Assembly (NCBI GenBank): GCA_964458565.1
Contig: CAYWJO010000022.1
Location: 1-51,302 of the forward strand
DNA: 51,302 bases
Direction of reading: 5' to 3'
Source: an uncultured archaeon
GTDB taxonomy: Archaea > Asgardarchaeota > Thorarchaeia > Thorarchaeales > Thorarchaeaceae
This document shows positions 5,290 to 12,659 of this stretch, piece after piece. The notes below the pieces were generated by a model. That model saw nothing but the letters and a program-made list of their open reading frames with translations, searched no databases and was not told where the DNA came from. The number at the start of each line of letters is the position of its first letter. Within the stretch, counting starts at the first letter, position 1. The translations under genes and the position numbers were made by a program.

Positions 5290-5926
5290 GTGATTAACAG
5301 CTCCTTATCAAAGTAAGATTGTAAGATATAGTGTGTCTACTAAAAGAAATGGAGGAAATCGATTCGTGATTTTTGAGCATCGCCGCTTAACCTCCGATTC
5401 AGCTAATGCGTCATTGTACCAATGCAATGCTGCTATTCAGCAGCGCCATTTTATGATGAAGTTCTAGTCTAAATGTTGTAATCCACTGAATACCTATTCA
5501 ATGACGAACTAAAAAACAATTAATAACTCTATTCTTTTATTTTATTAAAAACTGTAAGAAAAAGAATAGTAATAAGATGTATTTGTATCCTACAAGCTTG
5601 TAAACAAATAGTAATCTGTAACCCACTTATATATAAAATAACGATACCAATGGTAACTTATTCTATTTAGAAATTTCCAAAACGTATGGTACTATTATAT
5701 TTTCTATTAGTATAAACGTATATTTTTGAGATTGCGTTTCCTAGTTCTTTGAGGAGTATTCAGCGCCTTTGAGTAACTGTATCACCTATTGGTAAAAATG
5801 AACGACTCGACATTGTCCTCACACATTAAGTTGAATTCTACTCGGAGGATTATATCTATCATTAAATGTCTTGAAATTGAATCACTGTGAGACGTAACAT
5901 ACATTGGGTATCAGATACCAAAACAT

Positions 5927-6703
5927 TTGATATATCGTTTGACTAGATTGCTTTGTGAGAGGTTCAATCTATTGGACGAAATATATGAGAAAATGCGGAA
6001 TGACCTGATTAAGGAAGGACTTCTAAAACCTGATGAGGAAATTGACAATATCGAGTTGACAAAGAAATGGCAGGAGTTACAGGTAAAGCAGATGAAAGCT
6101 GCAATGTCAGGAGCTTTTGATGATATAATCCCCTCAAGTTCAGATCGAACCAAGAAAGAAGGAGTGAAGCCTCCAAGTTTATTTCAAGATATGGAATCCC
6201 CTTTTGATTTCACTACTCAAAGTACATCTGAAAAAGAGATTGACGTTCGAGAAGGAATAAGACAAGCACTCGATGCACTTCTTAACAAAGCAATTGGTGC
6301 CAATTATTGTATGATTGTAGTGAATAGAGCATGGGTGAATTTTAGATATAAGAAGAACAAGGACAATCTTCACTTACAAGTTGCTGGAAACAAATACATC
6401 ACCCCAATGAAATTGGAAAATAGAGACATTGAGCATTTAGAGAACATGGGAATACCTCCAGAACCAATGTCTATTGAAATCTACGCACGCGATTTTAATA
6501 AAGAATCAAGAGATTTCAATAAAATCATAGAAGATATTATCGAGATTTTCAAAGACGTCTACCATGTCAGAGATGGCGATGATGCCTATGTAGAGCTTGA
6601 TCTTGGTAAAGGAGAAGATGAATCAATATTGAAGGAGATTGCCAAATTCTTTAGTAGTAGAAGTGGAAAGAAATTCACGTGGCAGTGGAACAACAGTATC
6701 TAA
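5927..6703 (+). CDS. Hypothetical protein, C-terminal half resembles TY-Chap (CesT/YbjN-like chaperone) domain; true start may be downstream (e.g. ATG 5993)
   Basis: 258-aa ORF; pattern WVNF...LHLQVAGNKYI...L..MG...IFKDVY. Confidence 0.6.
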   Translation: MIYRLTRLLCERFNLLDEIYEKMRNDLIKEGLLKPDEEIDNIELTKKWQELQVKQMKAAMSGAFDDIIPSSSDRTKKEGVKPPSLFQDMESPFDFTTQSTSEKEIDVREGIRQALDALLNKAIGANYCMIVVNRAWVNFRYKKNKDNLHLQVAGNKYITPMKLENRDIEHLENMGIPPEPMSIEIYARDFNKESRDFNKIIEDIIEIFKDVYHVRDGDDAYVELDLGKGEDESILKEIAKFFSSRSGKKFTWQWNNSI

Positions 6704-6741
6704 TATATGTAGGTCCTGCTGCTAAAAATAATCAATGAACC

Positions 6742-6820
6742 AATCAAGGTGAAAGGGAGATAGATCCCTTGGAATAGGAAAAGCGTGTCGAATGCTTGAT
6801 CTATCATCCCTTTCTTGATT
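6742..6820. other. Long multi-branch stem-loop between convergent genes (3' end of vhu operon)
   Basis: Nested inverted repeats AATCAAG/CTTGATT, AAAGGGA/TCCCTTT, GATAGATC/GATCTATC enclosing two small hairpins. Confidence 0.6.
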
Positions 6821-6899
6821 TATCTGGAAATGTTGGTAGCGCCCTTCTCCGTTTCAGAACAATTCCATTCTCCAACATTTTACTCATCTCATTTATTAA

Positions 6900-6997
6900 A
6901 GGAAGAAAGTGACCGGCGAACCCTTGCGGGGTTGTCCAGTCCAGACCAAGTCTTTCGGTCGGGACCTTCATCCGCCGCCAGTCACGAGCTCCTTCCT
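6900..6997 (-). promoter_or_regulatory. Eukaryote-like (Asgard-type) SECIS element of vhuU
   Basis: Minus strand: AUGAA-GGUCC-C-GACC-GAAAGACUU-GGUC-U-GGACU-GGAC gives an AUGA/GA core, ~11-nt helix II and an AAA apical loop. It is closed by GUGACUGGCG/CGCCGGUCAC and GGAAGGAG/UUUCUUCC stems, with a side hairpin AACCC-CGCAA-GGGUU. Confidence 0.85.
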
Positions 6998-7120
6998 AAC
7001 TATTTCGCGGCCCTCGTCGTCGACGACGACTAAATGAGCGCCGCAAGATAGTCAGCAATCATAGCACCGAACCACCATTTCCAGGAGATTCAGTACGCCT
7101 TCAGGTATCTCGTCCGTCAT
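6968..7120 (-). CDS. vhuU: Selenoprotein VhuU, small C-terminal subunit of group 3c [NiFeSe]-hydrogenase (MTDEIPEGVLNLLEMVVRCYDCULSCGAHLVVVDDEGREIVRKELVTGGG)
   Basis: ATG 16 nt after vhuA stop; in-frame TGA at 7054-7052 in the R-x-Y-D-x-U-x-x-C-x-x-H Ni-binding L2 motif that vhuA lacks; SECIS downstream. Confidence 0.93.
7000..7051 (-). promoter_or_regulatory. In-frame stem-loop directly 3' of the Sec UGA (Sec redefinition element-like)
   Basis: CUAUCUUGCGGC pairs with GCCGCGAAAUAG (11 of 12), then CUC/GAG and GUCGUC-GUC-GACGAC. Confidence 0.65.
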
Positions 7121-7135
7121 TGTTTTGTTTCCTTT

Positions 7136-8452
7136 CTAGTGTTTAACCATTGGTTCTGGAAGATTGATCTGACTTAGACCATTCTCCTCTAGTATGAATT
7201 TAGCAGCATCCATGAGACTCTTCTCGATCCCTGCTATGTTATTATTAGTTGCAACAATTAGATTAGCATGAGTGAGCATACCTTTGTCATCACTCTCATA
7301 ATTATGCAACAGTATTCCTCTAGGAGCCTCGACAACACCAACTCCATTCCCTGCTTTCGGTTCCACATCAGAGAGTTTTACATCAGTGCTGACAATGTCA
7401 TCATCTTCTAGGAGTGTCTTTATCCACTCAACAGCTTGGACTGTTTCAACAATGCGAGCGTAATGATAAGCAAATGTGTGATGCGATGGTCTTCCTACGA
7501 GTTCACGCATCTCTTTGAGAGCCGCGTCTGCGAGTGGAGTTGCCATCTTATCAGCTACATTACACCTAGCAAGAGTATTGGCTCGCCATATGCCATCTGG
7601 ATATCCGGCTGGTTTGTAGTAGATATGTGTAGCATAGCTGTGATTTGGAATATGTTCTCCATAATACTGAAGATAATCCTTCGGTTCGAAGTCAGCGACT
7701 ATCTTACCCTCTGGATCCATAACACGAATTGTTCCATCGTAGATATCCAACTCACCGTTGTTTGCTAGACCAATGTAATAAGTCGGTGTAACAGCAACCT
7801 TCGTGACAACATCGATGTAGGCATTTACCACGGTCTTTGCTAGTTCAACTGTCTTGTTCAAATTATCAAGAAGTTCGGGTATCTGTTTCAACCATTTCTG
7901 TCGATCGTCCTCTGGAAGTGAGTGGAGCATTCCTCCTGGAATCGCAGTTACAGGATGTATTGCTTTCGCACCAATATCCCGGCAGAGTTCTTGTCCGAAC
8001 TCCATCATCTTGATAGCCTGAACTGCTACATCGGGTAAGTCTTTCAAGACCTGAGCGACATTTCTCAATGAAGGATCCGCTGTTGGACCATAAACAAAAT
8101 CAGGAGCAGCAAGTGCATAGAAGTGGATCATGTGACTGCTCAGTTGCTTTGCTTCAATGAGTAATCTTCGAAGTTTCACTGCTGCTGGTGGGATTTTTAT
8201 ATCCCAAGCTGCTTCAACCGCTTTCACTGAAGCCAAGTGATGGGGTATTGGACAAATACCACAGATTCTTGGAGCAATCCGAGGGGCTTCCTCCATTTGT
8301 CTACCGACCAGAAATTGTTCAAAGAAACGTGTGCTGTTCACGTTGAACTGAATATCCTTTACTTTACCCCCTTCACCAAGCTTGATGGTTAGAGAGCCAT
8401 GTCCTTCTAGTCTTGTCACTGGGTCAATTCTGACTGTCTTCACTCCTGTCAA
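7136..8452 (-). CDS. vhuA: Group 3c [NiFe(Se)]-hydrogenase large subunit VhuA/MvhA, lacking C-terminal DPCxxCxxH
   Basis: IDPVTRLEGH, RICGICPIPH (L1), EAPRG, NLIVAT; ends LPEPMVKH without L2 motif. Confidence 0.93.
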   Translation of the reverse strand: MTGVKTVRIDPVTRLEGHGSLTIKLGEGGKVKDIQFNVNSTRFFEQFLVGRQMEEAPRIAPRICGICPIPHHLASVKAVEAAWDIKIPPAAVKLRRLLIEAKQLSSHMIHFYALAAPDFVYGPTADPSLRNVAQVLKDLPDVAVQAIKMMEFGQELCRDIGAKAIHPVTAIPGGMLHSLPEDDRQKWLKQIPELLDNLNKTVELAKTVVNAYIDVVTKVAVTPTYYIGLANNGELDIYDGTIRVMDPEGKIVADFEPKDYLQYYGEHIPNHSYATHIYYKPAGYPDGIWRANTLARCNVADKMATPLADAALKEMRELVGRPSHHTFAYHYARIVETVQAVEWIKTLLEDDDIVSTDVKLSDVEPKAGNGVGVVEAPRGILLHNYESDDKGMLTHANLIVATNNNIAGIEKSLMDAAKFILEENGLSQINLPEPMVKH

Positions 8453-9375
8453 TGCTGTTTAGCCTCCTCACGTTTGATACGCATTCTACCCAGATGGCTA
8501 GTTGCGTAATCAAATCTATAGAACATACTAAGTGGATCAGGAACTTGTATCCTCAGTGCTTCTGGATCATTAGGTGCGTAGGTACCAAGCATGGACATCG
8601 AAGCTGCACCATGGTCGGACATAATCGGTGGCGGTGGTCCAAAGCATCCACGGCATGTGGTTCCATGACTCACGCATTGCCCCTCACAGAGACCCCATGT
8701 TGAAGAACCAAGACAGATGTAGCCTTGTTCCAACAGACAGCGGTCTGGATCTGCATGACCTGAAAAAGGTCGGAGAATCTCTGGGATAGGTGTTTCCTTC
8801 TTCTCGCGATCACAATAGTGGCATACCGTATGTGTGGGTAATTCAAGTTCCTTACCTTCAAGTAATGCTGTCACCGCAGTTAAGATGAGCTTCGATGTGG
8901 GGGGACAACCGGGTAGGAATATATCAAAGTCTACAAAGTCAGTGTTTGGTCTTACTACAGGTTCGATAGCAGGTAAATTCTCAGAAGGTACTTTACCACC
9001 ACTGAATGTTTTATTCTCTCTAAACTTTGTGGTTAGACATTCTTCAATATCATAGAAGTTAGCTAATCCAGGGATACCTCCGAAACATGAACATGAACCA
9101 AATGCAATGAGAATTTGACACTTCTCACGCATGACTTTCAGAAGATGAATGTCCTCCGCAGTCCTAGCCATACCCTCGAAAAAGCCGACTACGATTGACT
9201 TATCGGGGTAACCTTCAAGGTCAGAGAGTTTGTAATCAACAACAGCTTGCCAGTATTTGATATCAAGCAAAGGTAAGACTGTCGCTAGATTTAGATGAAT
9301 GTCTACAAGACTTTGGAAGCATCCCCAGCAGGAACTTCCTTGTCCCATTGCGACTGGTACAGGATCTGCCACCAT
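8449..9375 (-). CDS. vhuG: F420-non-reducing hydrogenase small subunit VhuG/MvhG
   Basis: SSCWGC, FGSCSCFGGIPGL, LPGCPP, VCHYCDR, CLLEQGYICLG, CRGCFGP. Confidence 0.92.
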   Translation of the reverse strand: MVADPVPVAMGQGSSCWGCFQSLVDIHLNLATVLPLLDIKYWQAVVDYKLSDLEGYPDKSIVVGFFEGMARTAEDIHLLKVMREKCQILIAFGSCSCFGGIPGLANFYDIEECLTTKFRENKTFSGGKVPSENLPAIEPVVRPNTDFVDFDIFLPGCPPTSKLILTAVTALLEGKELELPTHTVCHYCDREKKETPIPEILRPFSGHADPDRCLLEQGYICLGSSTWGLCEGQCVSHGTTCRGCFGPPPPIMSDHGAASMSMLGTYAPNDPEALRIQVPDPLSMFYRFDYATSHLGRMRIKREEAKQH

Positions 9376-9614
9376 TAGACCTCCTTAAGTGCGTAGATGA
9401 GTTCATGTTCATCTTCACCCACTACATCCACATCACCCCAACGAATCATACCTACTAAATTCCAAAGAAGGAGATCCTTTGGCATTTTTGTGGATTTGTG
9501 AAGTTCACTTATTGTTGCTGGATTACCAGAGAGTGTTTTGAAAATCACACTGCGTTGTTTCCTTACATCCCTACGGTTTTGTTGGAAATAACTTTCATAA
9601 TTTCTCATTTCCAT
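9375..9614 (-). CDS. Small winged-helix-like protein embedded in hydrogenase operon
   Basis: 79 aa, coupled to both neighbours; PATISELHKSTKMPKDLLLWNLVGMIRWGDV HTH-like pattern. Confidence 0.7.
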   Translation of the reverse strand: MEMRNYESYFQQNRRDVRKQRSVIFKTLSGNPATISELHKSTKMPKDLLLWNLVGMIRWGDVDVVGEDEHELIYALKEV

Positions 9615-10048
9615 TCCCTCTCGATAGGACCAAGTTCTTTGACTTGATTAATGAGTGTTCTAACACCATCTGCGAATATCTGCGCTTCTGATGCGCTCGC
9701 CCATTGTAACCTAACGCGTTTTGGATTTACTCCAGATTGCTCTATAGATCTCTCCATAAGCGCCCAACGAGCTTGTAGTTTTAGATTCCCACTCGTATAG
9801 TGACAATCACCAGGATGGCAACCACTTACGAGTACTCCATCAGCACCCATATCTAATGCAGCGAGTATGAACTCGACGTTAATCCTACCAGTACAATTTA
9901 CTCGTAGAATCCTAGCATTGGTGGGGTACTGAATACGACTTGTACCAGCCAGGTCAGCTCCCGCATACGAGCACCAATTGCAGCAATAAGCGAGAATCCT
10001 TGGCTCCCATTGTTCTTCTACCGTCTGTTGTTCTGTTGCTGTTACCAT
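9605..10048 (-). CDS. mvhD: MvhD/VhuD (second copy)
   Basis: YCCNWCSYAGADLAG, RVNCTGRI, GCHPGDCHY, WASASEA. Confidence 0.95.
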   Translation of the reverse strand: MVTATEQQTVEEQWEPRILAYCCNWCSYAGADLAGTSRIQYPTNARILRVNCTGRINVEFILAALDMGADGVLVSGCHPGDCHYTSGNLKLQARWALMERSIEQSGVNPKRVRLQWASASEAQIFADGVRTLINQVKELGPIEREWK

Positions 10049-11793
10049 TAGACTCCACCTCCTTCTGGTGCCATTGGACAGAGATACGCCTCCACCATGG
10101 CAAGAATTTGACCGTCTGTTGAATGCAGCATTGTGATGGCACTACTTGGACACGCTGCGGCACAAGTTCCACAACCATGGCACTTGGCTTCGGTCACTAA
10201 TGCTACTGGAGGGTCTCTCGACTCATCCATTGAGATAGCATTGTAAGCACAGGCTGTCACACAAGTATGGCATGAGGAGCAGAGGTCAGGAAGAACTTGA
10301 GCGACTGTTGATTCAATTTCAACTTCACCTTTTGCCATGAGAGATACAGCTTTGGCTGCAGCACCACTAGCATCAACAACTGCTTCAGTTGCATTCTTTG
10401 CCGCTTGCGCAGTACCTGCAATCATAACACCTGCTGTATGGGTCGTTAACGGAGCTAACTTAATGTGCTCAGGATTGAAGAACCCATCACCACTTCGAGT
10501 GAGACCGAATAGCTTAGCAGTTTCAGCAACATCATCTGGGGGAACCATTGCTGAAGCAAGAACAATGATATCAGGATCAAACTTGAGTTCATCGTCTGAG
10601 AGAACATCATGCCATTTTATTGAGAGCTTTCCATTGTCCATTGTAACGTCTGGTTTGGCATTTTTGGGGAACTTTGTGTAAATGACATGCTTTGCTCTTG
10701 CTAACCGATAGAATTCTTCATGACCTTTACCGTATGTTCTAATATCTTGATAGAGAATTAAAACTTCATCAGCATGGTCACGAATATCAGCTGCAGCCTT
10801 CGCGATTGCAGAACAACAGTATCGAGAGCAGTGCTCATGGCCTTTTATTTCGGGTTCTCTGGAACCCACACAACCAATGAATGCTACTTTCTTGATAGGC
10901 TTGCCATCACTAGGACGTTTGAGCTGGTCTTTTACATCCATCTCTTGAAACTCTGCAAGAGTCATGATATCTGGCGATAACTTATACCCATAACGATCAA
11001 CAGGTGGGAATGATTTGAATCCAGTAGTTACAATGACTGTGCCGATATCCAGAATTTCTTCCTTATTTGTTTTTGAATTCTTAACAGTTACTTCGAAGTT
11101 ACCAACATATCCGTCAAAAATAGATATTTTGGAGTCCGTCATCACTCTGATGTTCTTGTGGCTATTTGCTTTACGAATCATCGGCTCAAGAATTTCAGCA
11201 CCGGTTTTATCGGATGGAAACACATGATTCCATTTGGCAACATTTCCTCCAATAGTAGATTCTTTCTCAACCAAGACAACCTCAAATCCACGTTCAGCAA
11301 TATCAAGCGCTGCTCGTATTCCAGCTATTCCTGCACCTACAATGAGTGTCCGGGGTTCGATTTTGACTGTCTTGATAGGAAGTGCTGTTAGTTTAGCTGC
11401 TCTAGCGACAGACATTCTAACTAGATCAATTGCTTTCTGAGTCGCTAGCTCCGGTTCTCGCATATGACACCATGAAACATGCTCTCTCAAGTTGACTTGA
11501 TCGTATAGATACCGATTCAAACCAGCCTCTTCAACAACTCGTCGAAATGTTGGTTCATGCATTCTGGGGGAACACGAAGCTACTACCACACGATCTAAAT
11601 TCAATTCCTTAATCTTGTCACGGATGAGCTGTTGTCCTGAATCTGCACAGGTAAACATCGTATGCGTGGAATAGACTACATTTGGAAAAGAATTAGCTTG
11701 GTCCGATACTGCCTCAACATCTACAGTTCCTGCAATATTATGACCACAGTGACACACAAAGACACCTATTCTATGTTCAACTTGTTCCGTCAT
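10048..11793 (-). CDS. hdrA: HdrA paralog (581 aa) with N-terminal and C-terminal Fe-S domains but no inserted ferredoxin
   Basis: GVFVCHCGHNIA, SCSPRMHE, GAGIAG, CVGSR, CSRYCC, C-terminal CSSCHTC/CHGCGTC. Confidence 0.9.
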   Translation of the reverse strand: MTEQVEHRIGVFVCHCGHNIAGTVDVEAVSDQANSFPNVVYSTHTMFTCADSGQQLIRDKIKELNLDRVVVASCSPRMHEPTFRRVVEEAGLNRYLYDQVNLREHVSWCHMREPELATQKAIDLVRMSVARAAKLTALPIKTVKIEPRTLIVGAGIAGIRAALDIAERGFEVVLVEKESTIGGNVAKWNHVFPSDKTGAEILEPMIRKANSHKNIRVMTDSKISIFDGYVGNFEVTVKNSKTNKEEILDIGTVIVTTGFKSFPPVDRYGYKLSPDIMTLAEFQEMDVKDQLKRPSDGKPIKKVAFIGCVGSREPEIKGHEHCSRYCCSAIAKAAADIRDHADEVLILYQDIRTYGKGHEEFYRLARAKHVIYTKFPKNAKPDVTMDNGKLSIKWHDVLSDDELKFDPDIIVLASAMVPPDDVAETAKLFGLTRSGDGFFNPEHIKLAPLTTHTAGVMIAGTAQAAKNATEAVVDASGAAAKAVSLMAKGEVEIESTVAQVLPDLCSSCHTCVTACAYNAISMDESRDPPVALVTEAKCHGCGTCAAACPSSAITMLHSTDGQILAMVEAYLCPMAPEGGGV

Positions 11794-11795
11794 TT

Positions 11796-12659
11796 TTAGA
11801 CCTCCATAATCCCATTCGGGCTGATTTTGTTGAATTCAATGCCTAACGAGTCTTCATCGATTCCAATCGCCTTTCCCAAAAACTGCGGTAGAGTTAGTAC
11901 TGGGATTCGCTCTGAGGATTCAACAGATTCATCGAATTGAACAGAAGTCAATTGGATATCACAGAATACACAAGCAGTCACAATTCCATCAGCTTTGGCT
12001 TCTCTAACATTCCTGATTTTATCAAGACCAATCTTTGTGGCAACTCCCTCGTCCATTGCAAGCATAGGTCCACCACAGCAACGTGTTTTACCCGTATAAT
12101 CAACTGCAGTTCCGCCTGCTAGCTCGATAATATGATCAATGATTGTAGGATTCTGTGGATCATCAACTTGTACAATTTCATAGGGCCTTGTAACGTGACA
12201 TCCGTAATGAGCTGCAAGTCGCACACCATGATAGGGTCTGATAACAGCGGATTTAATCGCATCGTAACCTATGTCTTCATTGAATATTTGTAGGAGATGT
12301 TTTACCTGTATCTTACCAGTATATTCAAGACCCTCCTCCTTGAGAAGATCATTAACCTCCTTCCGTAACTCTTCATCATGGTCTAATTCATGCTTCACAG
12401 TCTTCAGAGAACCAGAACAAGCACCACATATAGCAAGAATGTCAAGTCCCATCTTCTCAGCAATTGCTAAAATTCGACCACTCATTGCTAGGAAGGCTTT
12501 GTGACTTGTTGACTCTACATATTGCGCACCACAACAATTTGCATCTGCCATCTCGACAATACTAATTCCAAGCTTTTCAAGAACTGCCTTGACTGAAGCT
12601 TCGTAAGATGGAAGACGGACAGGGGTTGTACAACCAGTATACAGTACATATTCTTTCAT
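11796..12659 (-). CDS. hdrB: Heterodisulfide reductase subunit B (second copy)
   Basis: TGC, NCCG, ICGAC, HYGCH, RCCGG, ACVFC motifs. Confidence 0.93.
   Translation of the reverse strand: MKEYVLYTGCTTPVRLPSYEASVKAVLEKLGISIVEMADANCCGAQYVESTSHKAFLAMSGRILAIAEKMGLDILAICGACSGSLKTVKHELDHDEELRKEVNDLLKEEGLEYTGKIQVKHLLQIFNEDIGYDAIKSAVIRPYHGVRLAAHYGCHVTRPYEIVQVDDPQNPTIIDHIIELAGGTAVDYTGKTRCCGGPMLAMDEGVATKIGLDKIRNVREAKADGIVTACVFCDIQLTSVQFDESVESSERIPVLTLPQFLGKAIGIDEDSLGIEFNKISPNGIMEV

Follow-up and report, generated by a model that had tools for sequence, protein, structure and literature searches.

The Sec redefinition element (SRE) of SEPN1, a hairpin in the coding sequence, consists of a 16-bp stem with a 5-nt loop and is separated from the Sec UGA by a spacer of 6 nt (PMC3159437). 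It stimulates readthrough (PMC2248747). In many viruses, as well as in some cellular genes, readthrough is also promoted by stems located 7-12 nt past recoded stop codons. In the case of MuLV, whose spacer measures 8 nt, the stem has been suggested to act where the mRNA is unwound in the entrance channel (PMC3159437). Asgard archaea have no known homolog of SBP2 (PMC4989117). Publications on this group describe the lokiSECIS, including the fact that it overlaps the stop codon of vhuU (PMC4989117), and survey the SECIS types present (PMC11227280). RNAz analysis of Loki-like coding sequences including 200 nt on either side revealed the SECIS alone (Mariotti 2016, PMC4989117), while the 2024 survey in ISME J scanned only a region around the gene 3′-ends, comprising the preceding 30 nt and the following 600 nt (PMC11227280). 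Surveys confined to 3′-regions can overlook recoding signals residing in coding regions. SREs and coding-region hairpins are not mentioned in a 2026 review. Within the searchable literature, no archaeal SRE and no coding-region structure in Asgard selenoprotein genes is described; publications combining the terms redefinition element and archaea were, by title and abstract, only reviews and eukaryote-focused papers. For the hairpin reported here we found no description in the searchable literature; the author of an earlier note on this DNA was not aware of a published two-element system of this kind in an archaeon.

The hairpin is located on a 51,302-nt stretch of DNA from an uncultured member of the Thorarchaeaceae, the whole of which is termed the window. 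On the minus strand of the window there is an operon with the order HdrA, VhuD, small ORF, VhuG, VhuA and vhuU (Table 1). With TGA translated as U, the product of its last cistron vhuU carries D-C-U-L-S-C-G-A-H, the nickel-binding motif of the C-terminus. Approximately 100 vhuU homologs were inspected, each of which contained a single in-frame TGA. The Sec UGA and the stop codon of vhuU are 28 codons apart, and the stop codon overlaps the SECIS core in the same way as has been reported for Lokiarchaeum VhuU.1 (Mariotti 2016, PMC4989117). Since HdrA and VhuD are Cys forms and none of the VhuD homologs listed for the family has an in-frame stop codon, Sec of the Hdr/Vhu complex seems to be confined to VhuU in the Thor-type family, to which the window belongs. 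The Lokiarchaeum Hdr/Vhu genes differ in this respect, as their Sec is not restricted to VhuU (PMC4989117).

Table 1. Genes, codons and RNA elements of the vhuU locus (positions within the window)
Feature	Position	Strand	Remarks
HdrA	11793-10048	-	Cys form
VhuD	10048-9605	-	Cys form
VhuG	9375-8449	-	
VhuA	8452-7136	-	
vhuU	7120-6968	-	50 codons; split C-terminal piece of the [NiFeSe] hydrogenase large subunit; ends in UGA
Sec UGA of vhuU	7054-7052	-	hairpin positions 1-3
Outer stem and spacer, 5′ arm CUAUC	7051-7047	-	pairs with (A)AUAG 7004-7000
Core GC-rich stem, 5′ arm U-UGCGGC	7046-7040	-	begins 6 nt after UGA
Inner part of hairpin	7038-7013	-	CUC 7038-7036 pairs with GAG 7015-7013
Apical stem	GUCGUC 7030-7025 with GACGAC 7021-7016	-	loop 7024-7022
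Core stem, 3′ arm GCCGCG-A	7011-7005	-	Gly-Arg-Glu codons
Outer stem, 3′ arm AUAGUUA	7003-6997	-	last hairpin bases
SECIS domain, eukaryote-like	6996-6900	-	by folding and covariation; basal helix begins at 6996 with GGAAGGAG
Stop UGA of vhuU	6970-6968	-	also UGA of the SECIS AUGA core (6971-6968)

Beginning with the Sec UGA, a segment of 58 nt (7054-6997, minus strand) folds into a stepped hairpin. CUAUCUUGCGGC (7051-7040) pairs with GCCGCGAAAUAG (7011-7000) at 11 of 12 positions, leaving a single C/A mismatch, and the 6-nt spacer is made up of CUAUC and the next base. All pairings which the earlier note had named are present, including the palindrome of 16 nt within the VVVDD codons (7014-7029), which is perfect and lies inside the inner hairpin. 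In the MFE structure the Sec UGA itself is paired with UUA 6999-6997, wherefore we set the extent of the hairpin to 7054-6997; in most relatives the partner is of the GUCA type. In a wider fold the 3′-end of the hairpin is one base short of the SECIS basal helix beginning at 6996, and in this sense the two elements do abut as had been proposed. RNAfold gave -27.2 kcal/mol for 7054-7000, with one structure accounting for 75% of the ensemble, and core and inner part (hairpin positions 10-49) contribute about -23 kcal/mol. None of 200 dinucleotide shuffles of 7054-7000 was equally stable (z -4.62). Because the hairpin is coding sequence, synonymous recoding is the sharper null. None of 2000 sequences recoded with the codon usage of the window reached the observed stability (z -6.1) in this control, of a kind suggested in the earlier note, and z was -4.4 when codons were drawn uniformly. 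Only one copy of the 58-mer exists in the genome, which rules out an origin of the hairpin from a repeat or mobile element. Thermophily is an unlikely cause of the GC-rich structure, since salt-marsh metagenome runs contain DNA near-identical to the locus; among the sequencing runs listed as containing the locus there was no RNA run. All 4227 Rfam covariance models were compared with positions 5500-12500, yielding no relevant match at E-values up to 10.

By its place in the gene the hairpin resembles the eukaryotic SRE. Both are stem-loops in the coding sequence 3′ of a Sec UGA with a spacer of 6 nt, both are phylogenetically conserved (here within one Asgard family), and both are gene-specific and coexist with a distal or 3′ SECIS. 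However, the Thor-type hairpin has an archaeal host, its spacer can pair and its outer stem contains the UGA. It abuts the SECIS, which in the case of the SRE is kilobases away, and there is neither sequence similarity nor lineage continuity between the two. Moreover, stimulation of readthrough has been demonstrated for the SEPN1 SRE, whereas the Thor-type hairpin is known by its structure and conservation. The readthrough stems of alphaviruses, tobra- and furoviruses, MuLV and Drosophila kelch and headcase are likewise stable stems that follow a recoded stop codon at a distance of 6-12 nt; they were detected by synonymous-site conservation and compensatory changes, and an action at the mRNA entrance has been proposed for them (PMC3159437). 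Unlike the hairpin of vhuU, they serve near-cognate readthrough instead of Sec insertion, and many of them have very long loops. With the bacterial SECIS the hairpin shares the location in the ORF at the UGA and a codon choice bent to pairing, but it lacks conserved apical-loop bases (alignment columns 28-33 vary at synonymous sites), a SelB C-terminal extension is missing and a separate eukaryote-like SECIS is present. The lokiSECIS resides directly adjacent on the same mRNA, and both elements are GC-rich in the Thor-type family. As the hairpin contains neither an AUGA...GA core (there is no AUGA in 7054-6997, minus strand) nor an A-rich apical loop, we regard it as separate from the SECIS. 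Finally, the euryarchaeal SECIS with its GAA_A internal loop between GC-rich helices resides in the UTR, unlike the hairpin. The 3′ arm of the window hairpin contains GAAA, and 50 out of 54 relatives have GAG at that place. Judged from position and evolutionary signature, the hairpin appears to be SRE-like, but probably is not an SRE by descent.

To assess its distribution, the VhuU peptide was used as query in a translated search. Sec-type vhuU, i.e. genes with one in-frame TGA, was detected in 205 out of 400 genomes of the phylum, and 104 distinct vhuU genes were taken for comparison. The GTDB family of the window (f1) comprises 86 genomes, mostly MAGs labelled Candidatus Thorarchaeota at NCBI; the large family f9 represents the Promethearchaeia, i.e. 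Lokiarchaeia. The NCBI taxon labels are noisy, and the hairpin tracks the peptide type ending with VTGGG. All 68 distinct Sec-type copies of the window's family have the same stepped hairpin with a core stem 6 nt after the UGA (mean MFE -31.5 kcal/mol; mean z against synonymous recoding -4.45, range -6.3 to -1.8). Sec-type vhuU sequences were also found on contigs of MAGs labelled Candidatus Deferrimicrobium and Nanopelagicaceae bacterium; these sequences are of Asgard type and the contigs probably mis-binned.

Covariation was studied using an ungapped alignment of 49 distinct 60-nt segments of the family. In these segments 90.8% of the cells were paired, as against 31-53% when the partners were slid by 1-3 columns, a control that ignores phylogeny although family kin are not independent. 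Only one out of 294 cells of the core stem (columns 10-15/44-49) was unpaired, while the pairs of the outer stem were kept in 73-100% of the sequences. Three core pairs exhibited compensatory changes. At columns 12-47 (45 CG, 4 UA) C-G is replaced by U-A in four sequences, at 14-45 (21 GU, 17 GC, 10 CG) G-Y is replaced by C-G in ten, and at 15-44 (43 CG, 4 UG, 2 UA) C-G is replaced by U-A in two. The compensation couples a synonymous change in one arm with an amino-acid change in the other arm about 35 nt off: wherever Arg CGC became His CAC, TGC has turned into TGT, and wherever Gly GGC became Ala GCY, GGY has turned into GGG. In the 3′ arm of the core stem, covariation with column 14 involves the third base of the Gly codon. 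The independence of these events was judged by means of a 300-nt tree and the distribution over genera and paralogs. On the tree, which used upstream sequence only, compensated states occur in several clades and genera, and they also differ among paralogs of one genome. RNAalifold, applied to the whole 3′-region, recovered the core stem independently beside the SECIS helices.

Ten paralogs contain an insertion of 12 nt. It is located apically and leads to longer helices with -28 to -45 kcal/mol; the four additional codons (E/R-E-D-D-D-G-E-type) lie in the cleaved C-terminal extension. Between relatives the apical register shifts slightly, and third positions in the loop are variable. In 66 of the 68 copies the sense strand is, through its G-U pairs, more stable than the antisense strand, which indicates that the selected object is the mRNA.

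The earlier note had also pointed to a GC-rich codon choice in the hairpin. This holds true for the hairpin codons (GC3 0.56 as compared to 0.34 in the long ORFs of the window), but the property extends over the entire Thor-type vhuU (GC3 about 0.56-0.59) and is not peculiar to the hairpin. In the Thor-type family the N-terminal part of vhuU has a GC3 of 0.59 and is mildly structured (z -1.7), whereas its Loki-type counterpart has a GC3 of 0.28. Part of the effect may therefore be due to selection favouring a small mRNA that is compact or stable. A finer pattern emerged at single codons. The hairpin contains rare codons, i.e. CGC, GGC and GTC, which make up 6% of the Arg, 10% of the Gly and 19% of the Val codons, respectively, in the long ORFs of the window. 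Paired third positions are nearly fixed in the Thor-type family (Arg CGC in 53/53, Ala GCT in 55/57, Val GTC in 49/51, Leu CTA in 52/57 sequences), while unpaired ones are free (Ser TCN 1.5 bits, loop Val GTN 1.9 bits). The homologous Ala and Thr codons of the Loki-type family are free as well (1.9-2.0 bits). A further constraint concerns the Leu codon following the Sec UGA (7049-7051). It is CUA in 52 out of 57 Thor-type and 18 out of 22 Loki-type vhuU genes, though only 16% of the Leu codons in the window are CUA. UGA-CUA is a context favouring readthrough in eukaryotes. As Loki-type genes have no downstream hairpin, the CUA constraint there cannot stem from it.

Covariation, the synonymous constraint matching the structure and the preservation across indels together support, on the level of sequence comparison, that the hairpin is an RNA structure under selection. 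Chance, codon bias and a repeat origin were excluded.

The hairpin is restricted to the Sec-type vhuU of one Thorarchaeota-type family and is not Asgard-wide. The 22 Loki-type vhuU genes show no excess stability (z -0.6), although gene length and the spacing from UGA to stop codon and SECIS are the same as in the Thor-type. Under the Thor structure 52.7% of their cells are paired, which does not exceed the slid controls, and no compensatory change was found in them, a negative result which agrees with the outcome of the RNAz analysis by Mariotti. In twelve vhuU genes from nine other Asgard families the hairpin was not found (mean z -0.8; a few local hairpins have z of about -2.5), and in Hod- and Hel-labelled vhuU, which resemble the Loki-type, it was not found either. 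The Sec-type selD genes of the Thor family (n=30) exhibit no UGA-proximal structure within the first 60 nt (mean z -0.38). One of the selD genes (genome G000, C2:141338-142400), a Sec form with the motif N-H-G-U-S-C-K, has a frame that ends in two consecutive UGA codons, and the 90 nt after its Sec UGA are somewhat structured (z -3.3). Hence, the synonymous conservation and covariation looked for in the earlier note are properties of Thor-type vhuU; Loki-type vhuU has no covariation and Thor selD no structure.

Other genes that could serve for comparison were few. Among the 86 genomes of the family a single Cys-type split vhuU was found (G013:C63:34312-34461), which has neither the hairpin (z +0.7) nor an AUGA SECIS. 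This fits a link to Sec, the gene being a single divergent one. Its motif is C-C-L-S-C-S-A-F with Phe at the position of the expected conserved His. The VhuD homologs listed in the search of the Thor-type family were all Cys forms, none with an in-frame stop codon, and thus offered no comparison for a UGA-proximal structure. None of the matches to the AhpC-TSA family (PF00578) in the genome contained an in-frame TGA. Since Loki-type vhuU and the vhuU of nine other families do without it, the hairpin is not needed for Sec insertion as such. Moreover, its confinement to the vhuU of one family makes a direct precursor of the SRE unlikely. This speculation of the earlier note is not supported, since the hairpin was detected neither in Thor selD nor in vhuU of the Loki-, Hod- and Hel-type or from further Asgard archaea, and convergence with the eukaryotic SRE is a simpler reading than descent. 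What remains of the two-element system suggested there is a hairpin selected at the Sec UGA beside a SECIS, in the vhuU of one family and not throughout Asgard archaea.

Regarding function, we see about an even chance, by analogy to the known stems, that the hairpin acts as an SRE-like roadblock at the ribosomal mRNA entrance, in concert with the abutting SECIS whose AUGA core is the stop codon. We favour this reading because of the covarying core 6 nt after the UGA, the likeness of the spacer to those of SEPN1 and viruses, the meltable outer stem and the adjacency of the SECIS. With the UGA in the A site, the spacer CUAUCN would lie within the mRNA channel. The less conserved outer stem including the UGA would have been melted upon entry of this codon into the A site, and the GC-rich core together with the inner hairpin would then be positioned at the channel entrance. 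There the hairpin may slow down or hold the ribosome and, as we infer, influence decoding by tipping the competition from the release factor to the SECIS-delivered Sec-tRNA, for whose SECIS-dependent delivery the time window would be longer. As the 3′-end of the hairpin adjoins the base of the SECIS, the latter might be held close to the decoding site, at a distance of no more than one helix junction. In the closest-studied Asgard genes the SECIS is only about 80 nt from the UGA. Tentatively, and with slightly less than even confidence, we propose that Thorarchaeota-type vhuU possesses a two-part Sec signal, composed of a UGA-adjacent SRE-like hairpin with a eukaryote-like SECIS stacking onto its 3′-end. 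In this case the archaea would have invented independently the principle of the redefinition element, for which only eukaryotic examples are known so far. The presence of the hairpin in one family, while it was not found in sister families, provides a natural comparison with and without the element. With about 60 nt plus the SECIS the element is simple enough for testing, and a Sec reporter system for Methanococcus exists (PMC9622424).

Other roles of the hairpin were weighed against the roadblock. It might be an architectural partner of the SECIS, which stacks on the basal helix or prevents the coding segment from interfering, and thereby ensures a fixed geometry and fast refolding. The hairpin ends where the basal helix starts, and the two elements remain adjacent in the insertion paralogs, as the extra 12 nt there are apical. 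Besides, the hairpin occurs in vhuU, where the SECIS overlaps the coding sequence, and not in selD, whose SECIS is about 1 kb away, and the Cys-type copy is devoid of both elements. We nevertheless consider an architectural role unlikely. Partition-function folding of seven genes with synonymously scrambled hairpin codons gave SECIS pair probabilities of 0.71-0.95, compared to 0.72-0.96 in the wild type, by which a function as folding insulator is dismissed. In addition, -37 to -52 kcal/mol were calculated for the SECIS domain on its own, and Loki-type vhuU with the same overlap and spacing has no hairpin. The same Loki-type genes speak against a control of ribosome traffic, as they share the problem but not the hairpin. 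According to this idea, the SECIS core has to be opened by any ribosome that arrives at the stop codon, and the hairpin, once refolded, would keep the following ribosome waiting near the UGA while the SECIS refolds and is reloaded. The location of the stop codon inside the AUGA core, the distance of just 28 codons between UGA and stop codon and the participation of the UGA in the outer stem are in favour of such a role, which we nonetheless judge to be quite unlikely.

A structure unrelated to recoding could confer mRNA stability or 3′-end protection, bind a regulator or cause a pause for maturation of the hydrogenase C-terminus. The position of vhuU at the end of the operon and the mild structure (z -1.7) of the N-terminal part of this altogether GC3-rich gene are compatible with that. 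However, the Cys-type paralog and the Loki-type orthologs have the same needs for maturation and stability without possessing the hairpin, and translating ribosomes open any hairpin in a coding region. The non-conserved sequence of the apical loop furthermore argues against a loop-specific binding protein, so that a role of this kind is very unlikely. Hardly credible, finally, is a by-product of amino-acid sequence, codon bias or chance, or a bacterial-type SECIS bound by SelB. Admittedly, the VVVDD palindrome arises from complementary codons (the reverse complement of Val GUC is Asp GAC, and that of Leu CUC is Glu GAG), and the hairpin occupies the position of a bacterial SECIS. But synonymous recoding never reached the observed stability, and covariation, structure-matched synonymous constraint and uniqueness in the genome are not expected from a by-product. 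A SECIS of the bacterial type is opposed by the variable apical loop. EFSec measures 468-481 aa in Thor-type and 474-497 aa in Loki-type genomes, and the Thor-type protein matches the bacterial selB model (581 positions) only from position 2 to about 300-324. Size and partial match indicate that there is no extra domain for hairpin binding, and an extended SelB/EFSec as reader of the hairpin was discarded since the Thor-type EFSec is no larger than that of the Loki-type.

Some minor observations relate to the surroundings of the hairpin. UGACUAUC can alternatively pair upstream with Met-Val/Ile-Val codons (z about -1.8 against the synonymous null in both Loki-type and Thor-type). In this pairing (7047-7081, minus strand), the Sec codon and CUAUC are bound to AUG-(A/G)U(A/G)-GU, with the UGA in the 3′ arm; for the Loki-type family, RNAalifold predicted this upstream hairpin. 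Folding in this region is thus more complex than a single hairpin. In the SECIS basal helix, the 5′ arm GGAAGGAG (6989-6996, minus strand) resembles a Shine-Dalgarno sequence. It is composed of Arg-Lys-Glu codons (AAG in 52/52) and nearly invariant in the Thor-type family. Roughly 150 nt downstream of vhuU there is an imperfect palindrome of about 77 nt (6743-6819), which gave spurious mir-3202 matches on both strands and might represent an inverted repeat that resembles a terminator or binds a protein.
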